Below, one piece after another: positions 9,686 through 40,552 of a DNA stretch of 64,000 bases; the stretch's first letter is position 1; each line of letters begins with the position of its first letter. The position numbers and the translations under genes were made by a program. The stretch comes from a phage, in assembly GCA_012225525.1 (NCBI GenBank), contig GCA_012225525.1_3923.1; one strand, given 5' to 3'. The notes beneath the pieces were generated by a model that did not search any database, had not been told where the DNA came from, and saw only the letters and a program-made list of their open reading frames with translations.

Positions 9686-11830
9686 ATGAACAAAGTGCAG
9701 ATTATTAAAAAGAATGGCTCACTCGAAGAACCTGATATCAAAAAAGTTTTAGCAGCAGTCACAAAGTCAGCTAATAGGGTTGGTTATAAAGAGCTTCCAC
9801 CAGATGTTACTCAAGCTCTTGAGTCAGCATTTATGAGGATTCTGGTAAAGTCCGCTAAGCAGAATAATTTGCTTATCTCGGTAAATGATATTCACAGTAT
9901 TGTTGAAGGTGCTTTGGCAGAAGTTAATCACGAGATTTATGAGTCTTACTCAACATATAGAAATTACCGTAAAGAAGTTGCTCAAAATTGGGATGAACTC
10001 TACCAGAAGACCAAAGATACACTCTTCTTAGGTGACAGAGAGAATGCTAACTTTGACAGCAGTTTAATTTCTACAAAAGGTTCAATTATTCGTGGTTATC
10101 TGACTAAAGAAATCTTTAAACAGTACCATTTAACACCAGAGGAACTTGAAGCCATTGAAAAAGGGTTTATCTATATCCATGATTTAAGAGACCTAATCTT
10201 TGGTGGTATCAACTGTTGCCTGTTTGACATTGGTAAAGTCCTGAAAGGTGGCTTTGAAATGTCTGGCATCGAATATTGTGAACCAAAGTCTGTGCTGTCG
10301 GCCTTACAGGTTATTGGTGACGTAGTTCTTTCAGCAACTGCACAGCAATTTGGTGGCTTTACTTTAGCAGAGATTGATAAGGTACTTGTACCGTATGCTA
10401 AGAAGTCTCTACGCTATCATGCTGAGAAAGCAGCATCTTATGGTATTCCTAAAGAACATTACCACAATTATGTCATGGAGCAGCTACAGATTGAACTAAC
10501 TCAAGGTTTCCAGTCACTTGAAATGAAACTAAATACCGTACCTTGTAGCCGTGGGGATTTTGCATTTACAACTTTGACATTCGGGTTACTTGACTCAGAT
10601 ATGTCTAATGAAGATAACCGACTGCAATATATGATTGCAAGTACTCTCCTAGATGTTCGTATGAATGGACAAGGTAAGAGCAAGAAACCTGTTGTATTCC
10701 CTAAACTGGTTTATATTTATGACCAGAAGAGACATAATGAGAATATCTGTCAAGGCCACCTGTACAGTAAAGCTATAGAGTGTTGCTCTAAAGCGATGTA
10801 TCCAGATTTCTTAAGTGTATCTGGTCATGGTGCTGTAGCAGAAGCTTTTGAGCGTTCTGGCAAGGTAATCTCGCCGATGGGTTGTAGAGCCTTCTTATCT
10901 CCATATCTTAACGAGGATGGGGAAGAGTTCTACGTTGGTCGTGCTAACATTGGTGCTGTATCTTTGAACTTACCAATGATTTACCAGTATTCTAAAGAGA
11001 ATGGTTTAGATTTCTGGAAAGAGCTTGATAAGTACCTAGAGATGATTCGCAGCTTCCACAAGAAACGCTACGAAATGATTGCTAATATGCCAGCAAGTTC
11101 TAACCCTCTTGCGTTCACACAAGGTGGTCTGTACAAAGGAACTAAGAAACCTACTGACAAGGTTGGTTGGGATATTGTGAAGTCCTTCACAGCTTCTTTT
11201 GGTGTTACTGCGCTTGATGAGTTGTCTGTTCTTGCTGAAGGTAAACGACTTCATGAAGTTGGAAGCTATAGTTTTGCATATGATGTTCTGGCATACATTA
11301 ACATGAAAACCGAAGAGTTTAAAAATGAAGATGACTTCTTATATGCCGTCTATGGTACTCCAGCAGAATCACTATGTGGGACTCAGCTAAAACAGTTCAG
11401 AGATATGTTTGGGGTTATCAAAGGTGTTTCCGATAAGGAATACTTTACAAATAGTTTCCATATGAATGTTGCAGCAGACATCTCACCATTTGAGAAGCAG
11501 GACTTAGAAGAGCCATTCTTCCATATCTGTAGAGGCGGTAGAATCCAGTATGTAAGAGTAGCTAACCCAGAAAACTTAACAGCACTTAAAAGTTGTATTA
11601 CAAGAGGTATGTTGAAAGGTTTCTATCAGGGACTTAACTTTGACTTAGCAATCTGTGAACATTGTGGTAACAGGCCAAAGGCTGATGTTGAAGAATGTGA
11701 AGTTTGTCACTCACATGATATCTCTGTGATTAACAGGGTGTGTGGGTATCTTGGATGGACTAAGATTAAAGGTGAATCCCGAATGAACGATGCAAAAATC
11801 GCTGAGATTCGTGACAGGGTTTCTATGTAA
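9686..11830 (+). CDS. nrdD: anaerobic ribonucleoside-triphosphate reductase (class III RNR)
   Basis: 714 aa; C-terminal Cys cluster and NRVCGYLG glycyl-radical motif. Confidence 0.9.
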   Translation: MNKVQIIKKNGSLEEPDIKKVLAAVTKSANRVGYKELPPDVTQALESAFMRILVKSAKQNNLLISVNDIHSIVEGALAEVNHEIYESYSTYRNYRKEVAQNWDELYQKTKDTLFLGDRENANFDSSLISTKGSIIRGYLTKEIFKQYHLTPEELEAIEKGFIYIHDLRDLIFGGINCCLFDIGKVLKGGFEMSGIEYCEPKSVLSALQVIGDVVLSATAQQFGGFTLAEIDKVLVPYAKKSLRYHAEKAASYGIPKEHYHNYVMEQLQIELTQGFQSLEMKLNTVPCSRGDFAFTTLTFGLLDSDMSNEDNRLQYMIASTLLDVRMNGQGKSKKPVVFPKLVYIYDQKRHNENICQGHLYSKAIECCSKAMYPDFLSVSGHGAVAEAFERSGKVISPMGCRAFLSPYLNEDGEEFYVGRANIGAVSLNLPMIYQYSKENGLDFWKELDKYLEMIRSFHKKRYEMIANMPASSNPLAFTQGGLYKGTKKPTDKVGWDIVKSFTASFGVTALDELSVLAEGKRLHEVGSYSFAYDVLAYINMKTEEFKNEDDFLYAVYGTPAESLCGTQLKQFRDMFGVIKGVSDKEYFTNSFHMNVAADISPFEKQDLEEPFFHICRGGRIQYVRVANPENLTALKSCITRGMLKGFYQGLNFDLAICEHCGNRPKADVEECEVCHSHDISVINRVCGYLGWTKIKGESRMNDAKIAEIRDRVSM

Positions 11831-11879: not shown

Positions 11880-11984
11880 TTGGATGTTAGATATGGCAGA
11901 GAGTATTATTAGGTTGTTCATAGGTTCTGTCTTACTAGGGTTCTTTTTAGGACTCTCTTATTGTGAATTAAGAGGCAAGTTAAA

Positions 11985-12185
11985 ATGTTTAAAATATCAA
12001 AAGCGTTGATATACATTCTCCACATTCTAATCTTCTTCTTTGGGGTTAGTGTTATGGTATGGGGTTTTTCAGACCCACAATGGAGTTTCGCATATCAGGG
12101 TCAGATGGATTTATGGTCATGCTTCAAACCATTTTTAGGGTTAGTCATAGCATTCAGTGCATTGCCAACTAAGGTGAAATTATGA
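11985..12185 (+). CDS. small membrane protein
   Basis: 66 aa, hydrophobic. Confidence 0.25.
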   Translation: MFKISKALIYILHILIFFFGVSVMVWGFSDPQWSFAYQGQMDLWSCFKPFLGLVIAFSALPTKVKL

Positions 12186-15849: not shown

Positions 15850-17631
15850 ATGACTAAATCACTTTATGCAGTACCAGCAGGTTTAAACGCAGATGCTTAC
15901 AAATCTGGTCATGTTTACCAGTACCCTAGTGCAACAGAGTACTTGATGTTCAACCTGACACCACGTAGTGACAAATGGTTTAACAGCCCCTTAGCAATTG
16001 ATGGTGTAGTAGCTTTTGGTATTCAACGTTTCGTTAAAGATTACTTGATAGACCACTGGAACGCCACTTTCTTTGAACGTGATAAAAAAGAAGCCATTGA
16101 TGAAATCTTAGAAGTCATGAATGGTGTTCTGGGTAAAGATGCTATCGGTCGAGAGCATTGGGAAGCACTTCACGACTTAGGTTATCTACCAGTTGAAGTA
16201 TACGCTGTAGAAGAAGGTACAGTTGTTCCTATGCGTGTACCAATGATTGTCTTCCAGAACACTGTTTCAGGTTTCCATTGGGTAGCGGGGTATCTGGAAG
16301 ATGCTTTCTCTGCTGAGATTTGGAAGGCTTGTACCATTGCAACTATTGCATTGCATTATAAACGCATCTGTAAGAAGTGGGCTGACCTTACTTGCGACAA
16401 TGACTTACATTTGCCTTATCAGTGCCATGACTTTGCTATGCGTGGTATGTCCGGCTTTACTGATGACGCATTTAACGCTGTAGGCCACTTAACCAGCTTT
16501 AAAGGAACTGATAGCTTCCCTGCTGTGTATACGGCTAAACGAATCTATGGACAGTCTTACCCAATCTCTGATATTGGTAGCTCTGTACCAGCCACTGAGC
16601 ACTCTGTAATGTGTGCAAACATTGCTTGGGAAGGTGGTAATGATTTGGTTGAAGAAGAAAGACGCTTTAAAGGTGAGTTACAAACCTTCCGTCGTTTCTT
16701 AACAGAAACTTACCCAACTGGTATTGCAAGTGTTGTTTCAGACACTTATAACTTCTGGAGAACTGTGTCAGAAATCTTACCAGCACTTCGTAAAGAAATT
16801 ATGGAACGTGATGGCAAACTGGTAATTCGTCCTGACTCTGGAGACCCTGTACATATTGTCACAGGTTATAAAGCAATCCACTTAGAATGTGCTAAGAAGG
16901 CTTATTACGAGCACCTAATCAAGCTGGAAGCCAGTGACACAATGTTGAATGCTGTTCTGAACATGAAGCTTGAAAACATCAACTATGGTATTGCTGGATG
17001 GCTACTGTCAGAAGGCTACGAAATGGTTGTTGACAGAGAAGACTTTGAAGTTGCTGATACAGTGATGTTGAAAAACGCCTATATGGTTGGTTCTGCAAAC
17101 GTTGTAACACGTCCTGTAGCAGAGATTGATGGGGCCATTAAGACCTTGTATAACATCTTTGGAGGAACTATCAACTCTAAAGGGTTTAAGGTACTGGATG
17201 AGCACATTGGCCTTATCTATGGTGACTCTATCACGTTGGAACGTGCAAACGAAATCCTGAAGCGTTTGTATGAAATGGGTTTTGCAAGCTCTAACGTAGT
17301 GTTTGGTGTAGGTTCTTACACTTACCAGTACATGACTCGTGACACCTTTGCATTTGCTGTCAAAGCAACTCTTGCAAGCATTGGTGGTAAAGAGATTATG
17401 CTTGCAAAAGACCCTAAAACAGATAGCGGTATTAAGAAGTCTGCTTTTGGTGGTGTAGCCCCTATGTGGGATGGTGAGAATCTGAAAGCTGTAGATGGCT
17501 ATGGATTCCAGAGTTTTGCAGATGCACTTGAGCATCCAGCTTGTGCTTTACGTTTAGTCTTTAGCGACTCTGAGCAGTTCGGCTACACAACTCTTGGCGA
17601 TATTCGAAATAATATTGACAAGCAGCTTTAA
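15850..17631 (+). CDS. nicotinamide phosphoribosyltransferase-like enzyme (NAMPT family)
   Basis: 593 aa; N-terminal DAYKSGHVYQYP resembles NAMPT DSYK region; adjacent to Prs-like gene. Confidence 0.8.
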   Translation: MTKSLYAVPAGLNADAYKSGHVYQYPSATEYLMFNLTPRSDKWFNSPLAIDGVVAFGIQRFVKDYLIDHWNATFFERDKKEAIDEILEVMNGVLGKDAIGREHWEALHDLGYLPVEVYAVEEGTVVPMRVPMIVFQNTVSGFHWVAGYLEDAFSAEIWKACTIATIALHYKRICKKWADLTCDNDLHLPYQCHDFAMRGMSGFTDDAFNAVGHLTSFKGTDSFPAVYTAKRIYGQSYPISDIGSSVPATEHSVMCANIAWEGGNDLVEEERRFKGELQTFRRFLTETYPTGIASVVSDTYNFWRTVSEILPALRKEIMERDGKLVIRPDSGDPVHIVTGYKAIHLECAKKAYYEHLIKLEASDTMLNAVLNMKLENINYGIAGWLLSEGYEMVVDREDFEVADTVMLKNAYMVGSANVVTRPVAEIDGAIKTLYNIFGGTINSKGFKVLDEHIGLIYGDSITLERANEILKRLYEMGFASSNVVFGVGSYTYQYMTRDTFAFAVKATLASIGGKEIMLAKDPKTDSGIKKSAFGGVAPMWDGENLKAVDGYGFQSFADALEHPACALRLVFSDSEQFGYTTLGDIRNNIDKQL

Positions 17632-17645
17632 AAGTATATGATAAT

Positions 17646-17667
17646 AGGCTCCTACGGGAGCCTTTTT
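17646..17667 (+). terminator. intrinsic terminator hairpin
   Basis: AGGCTCC-TACG-GGAGCCT followed by TTTT. Confidence 0.6.
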
Positions 17668-17684
17668 AATTTCTGGAGAAAATT

Positions 17685-18020
17685 ATGAAAATCAAAGAGA
17701 TGAACATCAACATTGTCTTAGAAGAGCGTTGGGAGAACATCAAGAAGCCTGAAAATGGTCATAAGTTCCTCAACAAAATCTTAGTAGCAGCTAAAGAAGA
17801 ACTGACTGGGAAGATTGCAGCAGCAATCACAATAAAGGTGTGTGTAAAAGGTCTTCCAGACAATCACCAATTTGCACTTGACGAGTTTAAAGAAAGCTTC
17901 TACAATCCAAACAAACAGATGCTTGAAAGTAACTTTGCAGTATCTACAAGTATCGTCCATGACAGAAGCTTTATCCTTTACAAAAACATGAGAGGTGAGT
18001 CATGCAAGCATATTGGGTAG
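17685..18020 (+). CDS. hypothetical protein
   Basis: Track ORF. Confidence 0.4.
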   Translation: MKIKEMNINIVLEERWENIKKPENGHKFLNKILVAAKEELTGKIAAAITIKVCVKGLPDNHQFALDEFKESFYNPNKQMLESNFAVSTSIVHDRSFILYKNMRGESCKHIG

Positions 18021-18178
18021 AAATTTTACTGTCACTTGGTAGTGTAGCAGTCCTTGTTTACCTTCTTTGTAAGTACTTTGCAGAACACAAGAAGTGTGAC
18101 TACTGTAATGGAGAAGGGTATACAAGAGCAGGTTGTTGCCCTATGTGTGGTGGTTCTGGTAAAATGTTTAATAAGTAA
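18002..18178 (+). CDS. small membrane-anchored zinc-finger protein (58 aa)
   Basis: ATG 18002 after GAGG; hydrophobic N-terminus then CDYCNGEGY...CCPMCGGSG (two CxxCxGxG units); not in track (under 60 aa). Confidence 0.3.
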   Translation: MQAYWVEILLSLGSVAVLVYLLCKYFAEHKKCDYCNGEGYTRAGCCPMCGGSGKMFNK

Positions 18179-18206
18179 TTTAACAGTAAACTAAGAGGAA
18201 AGTATT

Positions 18207-20573
18207 ATGCGCATGGTAAATGACCACGCAGAAGTGATTAAGAGTTCAACTTCTTTAGAGACGTCTCAAGCACAGATTACAATGACACCTGAGATGTTCA
18301 GCCTTTTGAGTTCTGGTGTATATACCTTTAAAGAAAGGGCAGTGATTCGTGAACTGTCATGTAACGCAGTAGATGCTCAGAAAGAAGCTGGAAAAGAGAA
18401 CATCCCGTTCCATGTGCATTTACCTACTCGTTTTGAGCCTTACTTTGAAGTTCGTGATTTTGGAACTGGATTGACTCATGATAAAGTTATGAGTTTGTAC
18501 CTAAACTACGGGGCTTCTACGAAGAATGACTCTAATGACTACATTGGTGCAATGGGTATCGGCTCAAAATCCCCATTTGCAATTGCTCAGTCATTCACAG
18601 TATCTAGCTATGTTGATGGTGTTGTTAATAAGTACTCTGTTTATCTTGAGAATGGTATCCCTCAAGTAACTAAGCTGACCACTAACCCAACAAAAGAACC
18701 TAATGGTTTAGCTGTACGTGTGGCAGTTGCTGACCACCGTATCTCAAAGTTCTTTGAAGAAGCTGGAAATGTGTACTCATACTTCACTGTAAAACCAGAA
18801 AGTAATATTGAGTACGACGATGTATTAGCAGATATGAACGTCATTGCCCGTGAAGAAGGTGTTTATGATGCCATGATTCATAAGCAAAGCTGGCGTTCTA
18901 GTGGTAATAGGACAGAGTTTAATGTGGTGATGGGTAATATTGCCTATCCAGTGAACATGGAAGCATTACTTGGTGATGATTTCTTCAAAGTCTTGCCAGA
19001 GTTTTTCCGTAGGAGCGTAGACCTTGTAAACATCTACATGCCTATTGGTTCAGTTGCTATAGCCGCTTCTCGTGAAGCATTGCAGATGAATGATACGACA
19101 AAAAATGTTATCATCGAGGCTACCAAAAAGATAACTGAAGCAATTACAAAGGATGTTATCAAGAAAGTTAATAGCCAACCTACACTGATGGATGCTGCAC
19201 AGGCTTATGCAGAGTTACGTTTGAACTCACGAGAGATGTTTAATGCTGTGTGTCCAAAGCTAGAGTGGGGAGGCGTTAAGCTTGATTCTCTGGAAGAAGA
19301 ATTGTTAAACATTCGTCGTGGAATTATCTACGCAGAAGACGGCTCAGTCATTTATGAACGTGACGGTAAAGGCAATATTAAGGTTGATAGGAACGGGAAT
19401 AATATCCCTAAAGTAGATTATCTTTATAACCCAGTTGCTTATGTCAAGTTCAACTCTTTAGAGAGTAAGATTCGTGCAACAGCACTTTCCTACACTCAAG
19501 AGGCAAGTATGTTCAATATCTTTGGTGCAATGCGTAAAAGCCAAATTGAACAGTTTTTGTTCGTGATTAATGACCGTCGCAATAAAAACGGTACTGAGAA
19601 GACTGTAGGACGCAATCAAATCTTGCGTGGTGCATGTCGAGACTACGCTAACGAGTCAAGTCTGTTCCACAGATACAATGGTATTGTGTTTGTATTCTCG
19701 ACTGAGAAAGAGCTAGATGACTTAATCAATCTGCACAAACTTGATAAAAGCTTGTTAAAGATTGTGAAGATGTCTGATAAGGAACATCACTATCAGCGTA
19801 AAGAAGCTGTAAGAGGTGTTGTAAAACTCTGGAAAGCTGTTCCAGCAGAAGGTGTAGCTTCCTATAAAGAGGTTTCAGAGGACTTTGATACAATTGAAGA
19901 ACCTCAGCTTTACATTAAGGCAGTTGGTGACACAGTTGATGGCGAATGTTTTTGCTCATCTCCAGAAGATGTGGCTAAGTCAGTTGCTAATGTTATAGGG
20001 AAGACAGTCTATGTTTTCCGAAAAGCAAATTGGAAAAAGATACCAGAAGACTGGATTGAAGTAGATGAGAAGCTCTTGAACGACAGCTTAACTGATGTTC
20101 ATTGGATTAATCATAACAGGTATATGACACGCATCTACATGAATGGTGTTCTTGACCTTACAAGCAGTTGGATTATTGCCAGAAACTTTACATTCAATAA
20201 CAGGAAGATTTCTCGTGGCTATTGCTATTCACGAGATACTAGCAAAACTATCTTCCTAGAAGGTAATGAAGAGGCTGTAGAGGCTATGTTCGGTAAAATC
20301 CAGTATGTTGCTGCACCGTTTGCATACACTTACACTATTAGCAGATTGCAAACTTTGAAAGAATGCCTTGACAATGATACAAAGCTTTACAAGAAAATTA
20401 AGAAAGCTGGTGACCGTATGGTTATTAAGGTGACAAACTACCTTTCAAAAAGAAAACAAGAAAACTTCTTGCTTTCTCATTTAGATTGGAATAAAGTGTC
20501 ACCCATCGAAGTGAGTAAGTTCTTAGGCTTTGATGTGAAGTGTGTTCCAGAAGGAACTACAGTTTACGATTAA
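18207..20573 (+). CDS. GHKL-superfamily (HSP90/MORC/GyrB-like) ATPase domain protein, 788 aa
   Basis: N-box ELSCNAVDA, G1 box VRDFGTGLT, G2 box GAMGIGSKSPF in the N-terminal 130 aa. Confidence 0.55.
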   Translation: MRMVNDHAEVIKSSTSLETSQAQITMTPEMFSLLSSGVYTFKERAVIRELSCNAVDAQKEAGKENIPFHVHLPTRFEPYFEVRDFGTGLTHDKVMSLYLNYGASTKNDSNDYIGAMGIGSKSPFAIAQSFTVSSYVDGVVNKYSVYLENGIPQVTKLTTNPTKEPNGLAVRVAVADHRISKFFEEAGNVYSYFTVKPESNIEYDDVLADMNVIAREEGVYDAMIHKQSWRSSGNRTEFNVVMGNIAYPVNMEALLGDDFFKVLPEFFRRSVDLVNIYMPIGSVAIAASREALQMNDTTKNVIIEATKKITEAITKDVIKKVNSQPTLMDAAQAYAELRLNSREMFNAVCPKLEWGGVKLDSLEEELLNIRRGIIYAEDGSVIYERDGKGNIKVDRNGNNIPKVDYLYNPVAYVKFNSLESKIRATALSYTQEASMFNIFGAMRKSQIEQFLFVINDRRNKNGTEKTVGRNQILRGACRDYANESSLFHRYNGIVFVFSTEKELDDLINLHKLDKSLLKIVKMSDKEHHYQRKEAVRGVVKLWKAVPAEGVASYKEVSEDFDTIEEPQLYIKAVGDTVDGECFCSSPEDVAKSVANVIGKTVYVFRKANWKKIPEDWIEVDEKLLNDSLTDVHWINHNRYMTRIYMNGVLDLTSSWIIARNFTFNNRKISRGYCYSRDTSKTIFLEGNEEAVEAMFGKIQYVAAPFAYTYTISRLQTLKECLDNDTKLYKKIKKAGDRMVIKVTNYLSKRKQENFLLSHLDWNKVSPIEVSKFLGFDVKCVPEGTTVYD

Positions 20574-20652: not shown

Positions 20653-21762
20653 ATGACTACTAAAACTAAAGCACAGATTGACGCAGAAATTTACAAACTG
20701 GTTAAAGAAGGTAAGCTGACTAAAACAGCTATTGCACAGAAATTTAATACTTCAACCCGTTCAGTTGGTCGTGCTGTAGAGCGTCATGAAGCAACCTTAA
20801 AAGGGAATAAGAAGGCGACTTCTACACCAGCTACGAAAACTTTGAAGCAAGTTGCTAAGACCTTTAAGAAGAAAGCTGGCAAACCAGTTGAAAAGGCTGT
20901 TAAAGACACTGTACAGAAAGCTCCAGTAAATAAACTGCACGAAGCTATGCAGAAAGATGACAAGATTGAGTACATGATTACTGGTGATTCTGTAATTATG
21001 ACTTATGGTTCAGAATCTGAAATTGTTGAGTCTACTCATCCGAACTATCAAGAGATTGTAGTTCATGTTGTGAAAGGTGAGTTCAAGAAAGCATTTGAAC
21101 TGATGAACATTCGTAAGTCTATCGAAAACTTCACTCAGGGTGCTATCACAATCAAAGGTGACAAGCTATTCTACGGTGCTGTTGAGATGCGTTCTACTCT
21201 GGTTGACCGTATTCTTCACATGATGAAAACTGGCGATAAAGGTTTTGAACGACTTGTAATGTTCTTCGAAAAACTGATGGAAAACCCATCTAAAGATTCT
21301 GTAGAACAACTTTGGGGATTTGTATCTCACCTTGATGTTGAAATTGATGAAGAAGGCTACATCATTGGTTGGAAGAAAGTCTCTACTCGTGAAGGCAAGC
21401 TGGTTGACTCTCACACCTACAAAGTTCCTAATGATTTGGGTAACATTGTAGAAATGCCACGTTGGATGGTTGATAATAACCGTAACGTAACTTGCTCTCA
21501 AGGTCTTCATGTTGGTGCTTGGGATTATGTTCGTTGCTTCTCAGGTGATACAATCCTGAAGGTTCGCGTACATCCACGAGATGTTGTATCTGTTCCAACT
21601 GATTACAACGATATGAAGATGCGTTCCTCTCGTTATGAAGTTGCAGCAATCGTTGATAATCAACGTAAAGTGCTGGAAGCATGGGACGGTAAGACTGAAG
21701 CTTTGCATGTCATCGTTGGCACTGCTGGTGAACTCATCTCTCAACGTAAACGTGAAATCTAA
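20653..21762 (+). CDS. hypothetical protein with N-terminal helix-turn-helix-like segment
   Basis: TKTAIAQKFNTSTRSVGRAVERHE near N-terminus followed by Lys-rich linker. Confidence 0.4.
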   Translation: MTTKTKAQIDAEIYKLVKEGKLTKTAIAQKFNTSTRSVGRAVERHEATLKGNKKATSTPATKTLKQVAKTFKKKAGKPVEKAVKDTVQKAPVNKLHEAMQKDDKIEYMITGDSVIMTYGSESEIVESTHPNYQEIVVHVVKGEFKKAFELMNIRKSIENFTQGAITIKGDKLFYGAVEMRSTLVDRILHMMKTGDKGFERLVMFFEKLMENPSKDSVEQLWGFVSHLDVEIDEEGYIIGWKKVSTREGKLVDSHTYKVPNDLGNIVEMPRWMVDNNRNVTCSQGLHVGAWDYVRCFSGDTILKVRVHPRDVVSVPTDYNDMKMRSSRYEVAAIVDNQRKVLEAWDGKTEALHVIVGTAGELISQRKREI

Positions 21763-21778
21763 TAAGTAATTTCTTAAA

Positions 21779-21801
21779 AGGCTGCTTCGGCGGCCTTTTT
21801 T
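21779..21801 (+). terminator. intrinsic terminator hairpin
   Basis: AAGGCTGC-TTCG-GCGGCCTT followed by TTTTTT. Confidence 0.6.
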
Positions 21802-39419: not shown

Positions 39420-40552
39420 TACGCCTCCCCTGCTGGGTTAACTGTAACTGTTGCTGCATTGGATGTTACAGAGCCACCTGCACCAGTAACTACACAGGTG
39501 TAGCTTCCTGCATCAGCAGCGGTCGCACCTTCTTTGGTGTAAGTTGCAGTAGTTGCATCAAGGATGTCTTCCTCACCTTTCTTCCACTGGTAACCTGTCG
39601 CACCTGTTGCCACAACATTCAGCGTTAAGGTCTCACCTTCATTGATTTCTTGATTGGTTGGCTGTTGAGTGATTACCGGAAGTGCGTTAACAGTAACCGT
39701 TGCAGGGCTAGAAGTGACAGAACCACCTGCACCTGTTACAACGCAAGTGTATGAACCTGCATCTGCTGGCAGAGCACCAGACTTACTATAGGTTGCATCT
39801 GTAGCCGAAGGAATGTCAGAGCCATCTTTCTTCCACTGATAACCTGTTGCACCTGTTGCAGTCACTTCCAAGTTGATGTTTCCACCCTCATTGACGGTCT
39901 GACCAGAAGGTTGCTGTGTAATAACAGGCAGTGCGTTGACAGTAACTGTTGCCGCATCTGAGGTAACACTTGTCCCAGCCTCTCCAGACACAACACAAGT
40001 ATAAGAACCAGCATCAGAAGGTGCTACAGATTGTTTTGTGTAGGTTGCAGATGTGGCGCTAGTGATATCCTCACCATCCTTTTTCCATTGATATCCAGTG
40101 GCATTGGTTGCAATAACGCTTAGGGTAAGTGTATCACCTTCATTTACTGTTTGATTGGTTGGTTGCTGAGTGATTGATGGTGGCTTGATAGCATCCTTCA
40201 ACTTAGCATTCAACATTGAGAATGGTTTAACTCTTGCCAGCCATTCACAATAAACTGTATCAACGTCTTTACCATTGATAATTGCATATTGTAAGTCCAT
40301 GAAGAAGTCAGAAGTTCTCATTTGAGCACCAACGCTGTAAAGCAACTCATCACTAAATGGGACTTTGTAGTCTGGTTTGTAGTCAAACTTCTCAACTTCT
40401 GCAATATCAGCTTCAGGCCAATACGAGCTATAGGTGAGTGGTAAAATAGCCTCTTGATATGTTCTAAAATCATATCTCTTACCAGCCTTTACATTTGCAA
40501 TGAAGCCCTTCACAAACTCTTTGAAGTCTGGGTAAGTCTTTGCTTTAATCAT
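39419..40552 (-). CDS. protein with N-terminal unknown domain and three C-terminal Ig-like repeats
   Basis: Three tandem ~90-aa repeats each with QQPTNQTVNEG...ATGYQWKKDG...DAGSYTCVV (I-set-like pattern). Confidence 0.6.
   Translation of the reverse strand: MIKAKTYPDFKEFVKGFIANVKAGKRYDFRTYQEAILPLTYSSYWPEADIAEVEKFDYKPDYKVPFSDELLYSVGAQMRTSDFFMDLQYAIINGKDVDTVYCEWLARVKPFSMLNAKLKDAIKPPSITQQPTNQTVNEGDTLTLSVIATNATGYQWKKDGEDITSATSATYTKQSVAPSDAGSYTCVVSGEAGTSVTSDAATVTVNALPVITQQPSGQTVNEGGNINLEVTATGATGYQWKKDGSDIPSATDATYSKSGALPADAGSYTCVVTGAGGSVTSSPATVTVNALPVITQQPTNQEINEGETLTLNVVATGATGYQWKKGEEDILDATTATYTKEGATAADAGSYTCVVTGAGGSVTSNAATVTVNPAGEA
39422..40180 (-). repeat. three tandem ~280-bp coding repeats (Ig-like domains)
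   Basis: Repeated nucleotide blocks; antisense ORF 39407..39628 is a by-product. Confidence 0.65.

Follow-up and report, generated by a model that had tools for sequence, protein, structure and literature searches.

The window analyzed here, a 64,000-nucleotide stretch of phage DNA (contig GCA_012225525.1_3923.1 of assembly GCA_012225525.1), carries on its plus strand a gene of only 58 codons (positions 18002-18178) just ahead of rIIA. We found that this small gene is real and under purifying selection, and that its product combines a hydrophobic N-terminal helix with two CxxCxGxG motifs whose family profile is related to the cysteine-rich domain (CRD) of DnaJ and to Anti-TRAP. We propose, with a probability of roughly 0.6, that this genuine phage gene encodes a single-pass inner-membrane miniprotein, whose membrane-tethered zinc knuckle would bind, on the cytoplasmic side of the membrane, a protein of the phage or of the host.

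Reading frame, conservation and extent of the family

The reading frame starts with an ATG at 18002, ends with a TAA at 18176-18178 and encodes MQAYWVEILLSLGSVAVLVYLLCKYFAEHKKCDYCNGEGYTRAGCCPMCGGSGKMFNK. The original prediction, made from the sequence alone, had placed the start at this ATG with a GAGG upstream and had noticed a 19-nucleotide (nt) overlap with the preceding gene. Both features are there. First, GAGG occupies 17992-17995, with a spacing of 6 nt to the ATG, and belongs to a longer purine-rich stretch, GAGAGGTGAG. A GGAG or GAGG at equal distance before the start codon is kept in the Mooglevirus, Suspvirus and Felixounavirus loci. Second, the upstream open reading frame (ORF), which encodes a 111-residue protein, spans 17685-18020, and the resulting overlap is identical in the phages Moogle, PC79-13, SFPB, EP1 and Felix O1; this is likely a translational-coupling arrangement. 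The features of the small gene are the following:

17990..17999, plus strand: Shine-Dalgarno-like GAGAGGTGAG, inside the 3' end of the upstream gene and 2 nt before the ATG (read directly from the sequence)
18002..18178, plus strand: 58-codon gene, orthologue of Felix O1 ORF131/Felix01p243, PHROG 3931 (ORF, profile match, conservation)
18002..18020, plus strand: 19-nt overlap between the start of the small gene and the stop region of the 111-residue gene (ORF coordinates)
18011..18070, plus strand: predicted transmembrane helix, residues ~4-23, YWVEILLSLGSVAVLVYLLC (hydropathy, AlphaFold2, flank charges)
18095..18118, plus strand: first CxxCxGxG motif, C32 D Y C35 N G37 E G39 (invariant in family alignments)
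18137..18160, plus strand: second CxxCxGxG motif, C46 P M C49 G G51 S G53 (motif scan, family alignments)

By scanning the six frames of the whole window for CxxCxGxG, we found the motif twice (n = 2), both times in the 58-codon ORF, compared with an expectation of 0.16 per window in mononucleotide shuffles. Two such motifs in one frame, 14 codons apart, are far beyond chance, and the pair reported by the original prediction is indeed the sole one in all six frames. At 11654, the window has one more CxxC...CxxC pattern, which is the zinc ribbon normally found at the C-terminus of NrdD.

The window is a Felixounavirus sequence, and over the region its identity is ~98% to the O157 typing phages 1 and 15 of Escherichia coli and 96-97% to many further genomes of the genus. 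That the gene was called unannotated holds for the list of ORFs on which the original prediction drew, restricted to frames of at least 60 residues, and not for related genomes, most of whose GenBank or RefSeq records include it as a coding sequence. The product matches PHROG 3931 over its full length (E = 4e-33; residues 1-58 on profile positions 1-59 of 59). In the Felix O1 record it is ORF131/Felix01p243 (NP_945023.1), a "hypothetical membrane protein"; the RefSeq entry for typing phage 1 is YP_009606850.1, and other records read "putative membrane protein". The gene is therefore already known and annotated, not new. In several records the Kolesnikvirus orthologue is labelled "dnaJ chaperone protein", which overstates what it is. 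We also noticed Felix O1-like sequence, including the small gene with 90-95% identity, under the names "Staphylococcus phage SA1" (GU169904.1) and "Campylobacter phage A132" (MG065664.1), which suggests that these two records are contaminated or mis-assigned.

By tblastn, the small protein is present in 258 phage records, with identities of ~52% in Mooglevirus and ~47% in Suspvirus. We then compared 37 loci, namely 36 fetched related loci and the window. The frame is intact in all of them, with 57-60 codons, and the median pairwise ratio of nonsynonymous to synonymous substitution rates (dN/dS, Nei-Gojobori) is 0.14. Between genera, synonymous sites are saturated and the pattern of cysteines and glycines is unchanged. 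These comparisons indicate purifying selection on the small gene, in line with its original description as a real short gene. The original prediction had named lack of conservation of the frame or of the cysteines in related genomes as evidence against it; we found both the frame and the four motif cysteines kept in 37 of 37 loci, across four genera of the Ounavirinae, and also in homologues from Krischvirus. The strictly kept cysteines are C32, C35, C46 and C49. C23, which lies in the helix, is variable, and C45 is not conserved, being a proline in the metagenomic relative P0010 and absent in P0137.

A chance ORF, or an untranslated decaying remnant, would nevertheless have to be considered for so short a sequence. 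The gene falls under common gene-calling thresholds and its size by itself is not significant, since many spurious ORFs of this length occur in AT-rich DNA of 39% G+C. Moreover, a few public genomes carry frameshifted versions (phiWec177 and a sister genome, NJ12, MG969406 and two metagenomic contigs). However, these are singletons with single-base deletions and codons otherwise unchanged, and neighboring genes are also truncated in some of the same assemblies. In our view, they reflect errors of sequencing or mutations acquired recently in the laboratory; alternatively, the gene may be dispensable in culture. Set against a chance origin are the dN/dS of 0.14, the intact frames across genera with saturated synonymous sites, the conserved Shine-Dalgarno element, the two invariant motifs and a full-length homologue in an unrelated myovirus lineage. 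On these conservation data, we consider a chance or non-coding ORF refuted.

The other two forward frames hold 2-7 stops at each locus. A 46-codon ORF in the +1 frame (18054-18194) overlaps the small gene, and in phiWec177, MG969406 and the two metagenomic contigs a single-base deletion leads into this frame, giving public "proteins" of 63 residues. We rejected dual coding there, because the +1 frame has 2-6 stops within the small gene at every locus and is not open in other genera.

Four Ounavirinae genera, Felixounavirus, Mooglevirus, Suspvirus and Kolesnikvirus, share the order 111-residue gene, small gene, rIIA, rIIB. In the Erwinia phage phiEa21-4 (Kolesnikvirus), the orthologue gp117 (54 residues, MDVHTGLNILLVLVIVGGLLAAKYRVDSCCKHCDGTGVKDGCVCPFCQGTGEDD) lies directly before rIIA-rIIB and aligns with the family profile with an hhalign probability of 96% (E = 1e-9); it also occurs in other Kolesnikvirus genomes. 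Outside the subfamily, the T4-like Krischvirus phage RB49 encodes a full-length homologue, RB49p046 (52 residues, MIIENLVSVFIIALFAIMTLPLKKCKHCNGTGLRGDGCCAHCHGSGKVSIIK; RB49 11884-12042, minus strand), with an hhalign probability of 97% and, in reciprocal tblastn, 42-44% identity over 88% of RB49p046. RB49p046 and gp117, of 52-54 residues, have like the small protein an N-terminal transmembrane helix, lysines or arginines and the arrangement CxxCxGxG-x6-CxxCxGxG. In contrast to the Ounavirinae members, RB49p046 is found in a T4-like genome beside the glutaredoxin gene nrdH, tens of kilobases from rIIA. Its homologues are present in ~60 Krischvirus genomes, and in every genome listed it overlaps the 3' end of nrdH by 11 nt, a different but equally tight coupling to the upstream gene. 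Two metagenomic contigs with phage-like gene packing also encode tiny proteins with the helix and the two motifs (P0115 and P0137). From Felixounavirus to Krischvirus and the metagenomic relatives, the invariant residues are M1, C32, C35, G37, G39, C46, C49, G51 and G53. As judged from these alignments, the extent of the family, with four Ounavirinae genera, a fixed position before rIIA and Krischvirus in addition, is new here.

Membrane helix and predicted zinc knuckle

The hydrophobic N-terminus described as a membrane anchor by the original prediction was recovered by two approaches. First, the Kyte-Doolittle mean over 19 residues peaks at 2.14 for residues 5-23. Second, AlphaFold2 builds a helix from residue 4 to residue 29. 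The N-terminal flank contains no lysine or arginine and has an acidic residue (E7 here; D2 or E4 in others). After the helix, 1-3 lysines or arginines occur within 15 residues throughout the family (K24, K30 and K31 here, KYR in phiEa21-4, KK.K in RB49), directly behind it in Felixounavirus, Kolesnikvirus and Krischvirus members, where the bias is clear, and in P0137. According to the positive-inside rule, an acidic N-terminal flank free of lysine and arginine followed by such residues after the helix makes an N-out/C-in orientation likely, for which the Pf3 coat protein is a precedent. This charge pattern across the family is also new here. With the C-terminus inside, the cysteines would be in the cytoplasm, whose reducing conditions would keep a Zn(Cys)4 site stable.

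For the C-terminal half, a family profile built from nine members was the decisive evidence. When searched against the sequences of the PDB, it matched the E. coli DnaJ CRD (1exk) with E = 1.8e-7, human DNAJA3 (2ctt) with E = 1.2e-6 and Anti-TRAP (2bx9) with E = 0.03; in the HMMER alignment with Anti-TRAP, the cysteine spacing is identical, C-x2-C-x10-C-x2-C. Against 1.84 billion representative proteins, the same profile gave 416 hits at E <= 0.001. Of the best 60 non-orthologues, all 60 carry PF00684 and 48 the Anti-TRAP family PF15777, and genuine J-domain DnaJs are included. The structural model agrees with this kinship. AlphaFold2 predicts a helix and then a small beta-knuckle, whose best Foldseek matches in the PDB are Anti-TRAP (root-mean-square deviation of 1.1 Å over 23 residues) and the DnaJ CRD. 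In a viral structure library, the model retrieved its own orthologue, then RB49, phiEa21-4 and various "DnaJ-like" phage proteins. Profile comparison thus decisively assigns the C-terminal half to the DnaJ-CRD/Anti-TRAP zinc-knuckle superfamily, and this firm assignment is new here.

The product had originally been called a DnaJ-type zinc finger. The motif part of that description stands, by the family-profile matches to the DnaJ CRD and Anti-TRAP. The domain part does not: the CxxCxGxG count is two, compared with four in the zinc domain of DnaJ, and the protein would hold one zinc site instead of the two-zinc, four-motif domain. In Pfam and NCBIfam we found no hit to a J domain, and residues 1-29 are a hydrophobic helix. 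With no J domain, half a CRD and, as a single sequence, scores below the Pfam and NCBIfam cut-offs, the protein is therefore DnaJ-like and not a DnaJ. Since the two motifs are adjacent, only one zinc center is possible, as in Anti-TRAP, and we predict that it would be formed by C32, C35, C46 and C49. This one-zinc, Anti-TRAP-like reading is likewise new here.

The same cysteines could instead work in redox chemistry, the CxxC pairs making the protein a disulfide isomerase or reductase bound to the membrane, its C-terminus possibly periplasmic. Thiol-disulfide activity is reported for the zinc-finger domain of DnaJ and for the plastid proteins LQY1 and CYO1. Two CxxC pairs are present together with a frequent extra cysteine (C45), and the Krischvirus homologue overlaps the end of a glutaredoxin gene in ~60 genomes. 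However, a periplasmic C-terminus would call for an N-in/C-out signal anchor, and the N-terminus has none of the positive charge expected of one, its lysines and arginines coming after the helix. The conserved glycines of the motifs and the spacing shared with Anti-TRAP point to a zinc knuckle, and the extra cysteine is not conserved. We consequently regard a redox enzyme as highly improbable.

Neighboring genes and expression context

In the window, the genes follow each other in the order prs, nadV, 111-residue gene, small gene, rIIA, rIIB. The elements around the small gene are these:

17615-17642, plus strand: promoter-like, near-consensus sigma-70-like TTGACA-16-TATGAT (sequence scan)
17646-17663, plus strand: terminator-like GC-rich hairpin AGGCTCC-TACG-GGAGCCT with a T-run, just after nadV (sequence scan)
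17685..18020, plus strand: upstream gene for the 111-residue protein, PHROG 4262, its end overlapping the start of the small gene (ORF, profile match)
18207..20573, plus strand: rIIA, beginning 28 nt past the small gene (PHROG 612, E = 2e-189, and annotations)
20653..21762, plus strand: rIIB (ORF and annotations)
21776-21799: terminator-like hairpin after rIIB, the next such hairpin after 17646-17663 (sequence scan)

The arrangement of promoter and hairpin at 17615-17663 is conserved in Felix O1, Suspvirus and Mooglevirus; in phiEa21-4, the hairpin, annotated "terminator", keeps its pairing via compensatory changes. This segment is the probable 5' boundary of a transcription unit holding the small gene. 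Judging from the sequence, the unit probably consists of the 111-residue gene, the small gene, rIIA and rIIB, and is probably expressed early or in the middle of infection. In the literature we found no transcriptome or proteome data for Felixounavirus, the published proteomes covering virion proteins only. The gap between promoter and hairpin is at most 4 nt, and the first nucleotide of a transcript from this promoter would fall within the 5' arm; such a transcript might escape termination.

The 111-residue protein was tried as a functional clue and rejected as uninformative. Its homologues (PHROG 4262) are found only in the same phages, and its positional counterpart in Kolesnikvirus is barely similar. 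Its AlphaFold2 model, with a predicted local distance difference test score (pLDDT) of 69 and the order beta-alpha-beta-alpha-beta-beta, gave weak matches to the IF3 C-terminal domain (E 0.008-0.05, TM-score ~0.45). In one metagenomic protein, P0165, prs is fused with the 111-residue gene, implying that nadV was deleted. Between nadV and the 111-residue gene lies a variable slot (17632-17684). Neither the window nor Felix O1 has a gene in it; it is filled in O157 typing phages 1 and 15 by an extra ORF of 114 residues that is no clear duplicate of the 111-residue gene (E = 0.11), in Mooglevirus and some Suspvirus by a 71-residue DUF7279 gene, and in Kolesnikvirus by a ProQ-like gene of 150 residues.

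The position of the small gene raises the question of a link with rIIA and rIIB. Its product could be an accessory subunit of their membrane-associated system, anchoring or regulating the rII proteins and aiding escape from membrane-acting abortive infection of the Rex type. It lies immediately upstream of rIIA-rIIB in the four Ounavirinae genera, at 28 nt in the window and probably co-transcribed, and both rII proteins are described as membrane-associated (PMC4837284). However, adjacency is weak evidence in a compact phage genome, and the distance of RB49p046 from rIIA, its gene overlapping nrdH, argues against such a role, as does a promoter-like element before rIIA in Mooglevirus and Suspvirus. 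In T4, the gene in the equivalent position, rIIA.1, is unrelated: we rejected it as a counterpart, its product being a soluble protein of 67 residues without the cysteine motifs. An rII accessory subunit is therefore possible but unlikely in our view.

The neighborhood bears equally on whether the small protein might be a holin, an antiholin or a lysis-timing factor of Felix O1-like phages, whose accumulation in the inner membrane would trigger or regulate lysis. Indeed, the Felix O1 genome paper of 2010 listed gp131 among five holin candidates, together with gp79, gp116, gp118 and gp119 (PMC3185647). One transmembrane helix with a lysine-rich tail fits, as does a place adjoining genes named "rII lysis inhibitor". 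On the other hand, the gene is not in the late module: its neighbors are rII genes and genes of nucleotide metabolism, and a sigma-70-like promoter lies ahead of it. What the family conserves is the zinc knuckle, which to our knowledge is a feature of no described holin. The Krischvirus homologues presumably coexist with a T4-type holin gene t, which we also count against this role. Later annotators place the holin in other genes, either a 123-residue one at the end of the tail-fiber cluster or a gp79-type one, on weak grounds. The 123-residue "putative holin" of the close relative Pr103Blw (39938-40309, at the end of the tail-fiber cluster) has no counterpart in the window. Our attempt to settle the matter by annotation failed: the holin of this phage group seems to rest on annotation, and the Pr103Blw protein is itself only a member of PHROG 4038, a family without a named function. 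With the points on both sides taken together, a holin or lysis-timing role is hardly probable.

Proposed role and comparison with known systems

Our proposal for the membrane-tethered zinc knuckle runs as follows. The protein would be made early or in the middle of infection, from a unit that would start after the nadV terminator and run into rIIA-rIIB. Residues ~4-23 would cross the inner membrane as one transmembrane helix, N-out/C-in, with the last 27 residues on the cytoplasmic side. In this segment, Cys32, Cys35, Cys46 and Cys49 would bind one Zn2+, the two CxxCxGxG motifs folding into a single zinc knuckle. This knuckle would capture a partner protein, from either phage or host, where the inner membrane meets the cytoplasm, and hold it there or block it. 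We infer a protein-binding role because of the architecture, which includes neither a J domain nor a catalytic domain, and because the characterized relatives that lack a J domain all act by binding another protein; by analogy with Anti-TRAP, which binds TRAP, and FIP, which binds FtsH5, it is the most likely one. Our literature search for a characterized phage membrane zinc-finger or DnaJ-like protein returned nothing beyond genome notes on two CxxCxGxG motifs in other phage proteins.

Beside the frameshifted public genomes, several observations weigh against this proposal. First, the window protein as a single sequence scores 17.1 bits against PF00684 (DnaJ_CXXCXGXG), for which the cut-off is 32.7, and the orthologues also remain under it. 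When single sequences were searched against Pfam, NCBIfam and PHROGs in order to find a named function, they gave sub-threshold matches alone (DnaJ, Anti-TRAP, DUF5351, a lambda-Q-like zinc finger and the NCBIfam DnaJ and RtpA models); NF058604 (RtpA) reached 11 bits compared with a cut-off of 65, and PF15777 did not match the window protein. Second, the AlphaFold2 model has a moderate pLDDT of 72.8 and, as expected for a domain of ~25 residues, weak Foldseek E-values (0.4-2). Third, the region after the helix is net acidic in Mooglevirus and Suspvirus, with a single lysine, so that the positive-inside argument is weaker there. Fourth, the same two genera have a promoter-like TTGACA...TATAGT past the small gene and ahead of rIIA, so that strict co-transcription of the two genes does not hold throughout. 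Finally, any link with rII would draw on synteny within one subfamily, the Krischvirus homologue being beside nrdH instead.

A more specific version of the proposal would make the protein a phage counter-measure or takeover factor at the inner membrane, its knuckle capturing a host machine close to the membrane, such as the FtsH protease, by analogy with plastid FIP, or a membrane-acting abortive-infection effector, alone or with rIIA/rIIB. We consider it distinctly unlikely. If true, the Ounavirinae and the T4-like Krischvirus would have in common a novel class of inhibitors, namely membrane-tethered zinc knuckles. More generally, if the protein binds a host membrane machine it would be a new kind of small phage effector, and if a mutant has no phenotype it would be one more conserved phage miniprotein. 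For this conserved gene below a 60-codon cut-off, a description as a membrane anchor with one DnaJ/Anti-TRAP-type knuckle replaces both "hypothetical membrane protein" and the misleading "dnaJ chaperone". Members of the family occur in several hundred sequenced phages of the Felix O1-like and RB49-like groups, many of them under development for biocontrol and therapy, and the fixed place ahead of rIIA-rIIB in the Ounavirinae makes the small gene a cheap candidate to study beside the poorly understood rII proteins.

Three known systems can be set beside the small protein. With the DnaJ/Hsp40 CRD (PF00684, 1exk), it shares the CxxCxGxG repeat and the profile relationship to the E. coli domain. 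However, DnaJ has four motifs, which form two zinc centers from non-adjacent pairs, as well as a J domain, a G/F region and C-terminal substrate-binding domains, whereas the phage protein has two motifs alone.

The second comparison is with plastid proteins, among which LQY1 is a membrane-anchored DnaJ-like zinc-finger protein. FIP (At5g02160) is another, with a membrane anchor and two CxxCxGxG motifs, and binds the membrane protease FtsH5 (PMC5915565). As in the phage protein, a hydrophobic anchor is followed by a C4 zinc finger with the two motifs and no J domain. FIP and LQY1 differ in being eukaryotic, thylakoid and longer, with a transit peptide, and the likeness to the phage protein considered here is one of shared motif and architecture.

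Third, Anti-TRAP (RtpA) of Bacillus (2bx9/3ld0, PF15777) is the best structural match of the AlphaFold2 model and, like the phage knuckle, has two motifs with the spacing C-x2-C-x10-C-x2-C in a stand-alone protein of ~53 residues without a J domain. Anti-TRAP binds one zinc through these cysteines and acts purely by binding TRAP. The match between the sequences is marginal, with a profile E of 0.03 and scores below the RtpA and PF15777 cut-offs. Moreover, Anti-TRAP is a soluble trimer with a C-terminal oligomerization helix and regulates trp genes, whereas the phage protein has an N-terminal hydrophobic membrane helix. Together, these comparisons describe the small protein as a membrane-anchored miniature of the J-domain-less DnaJ-like zinc-finger proteins, a sound but modest result.

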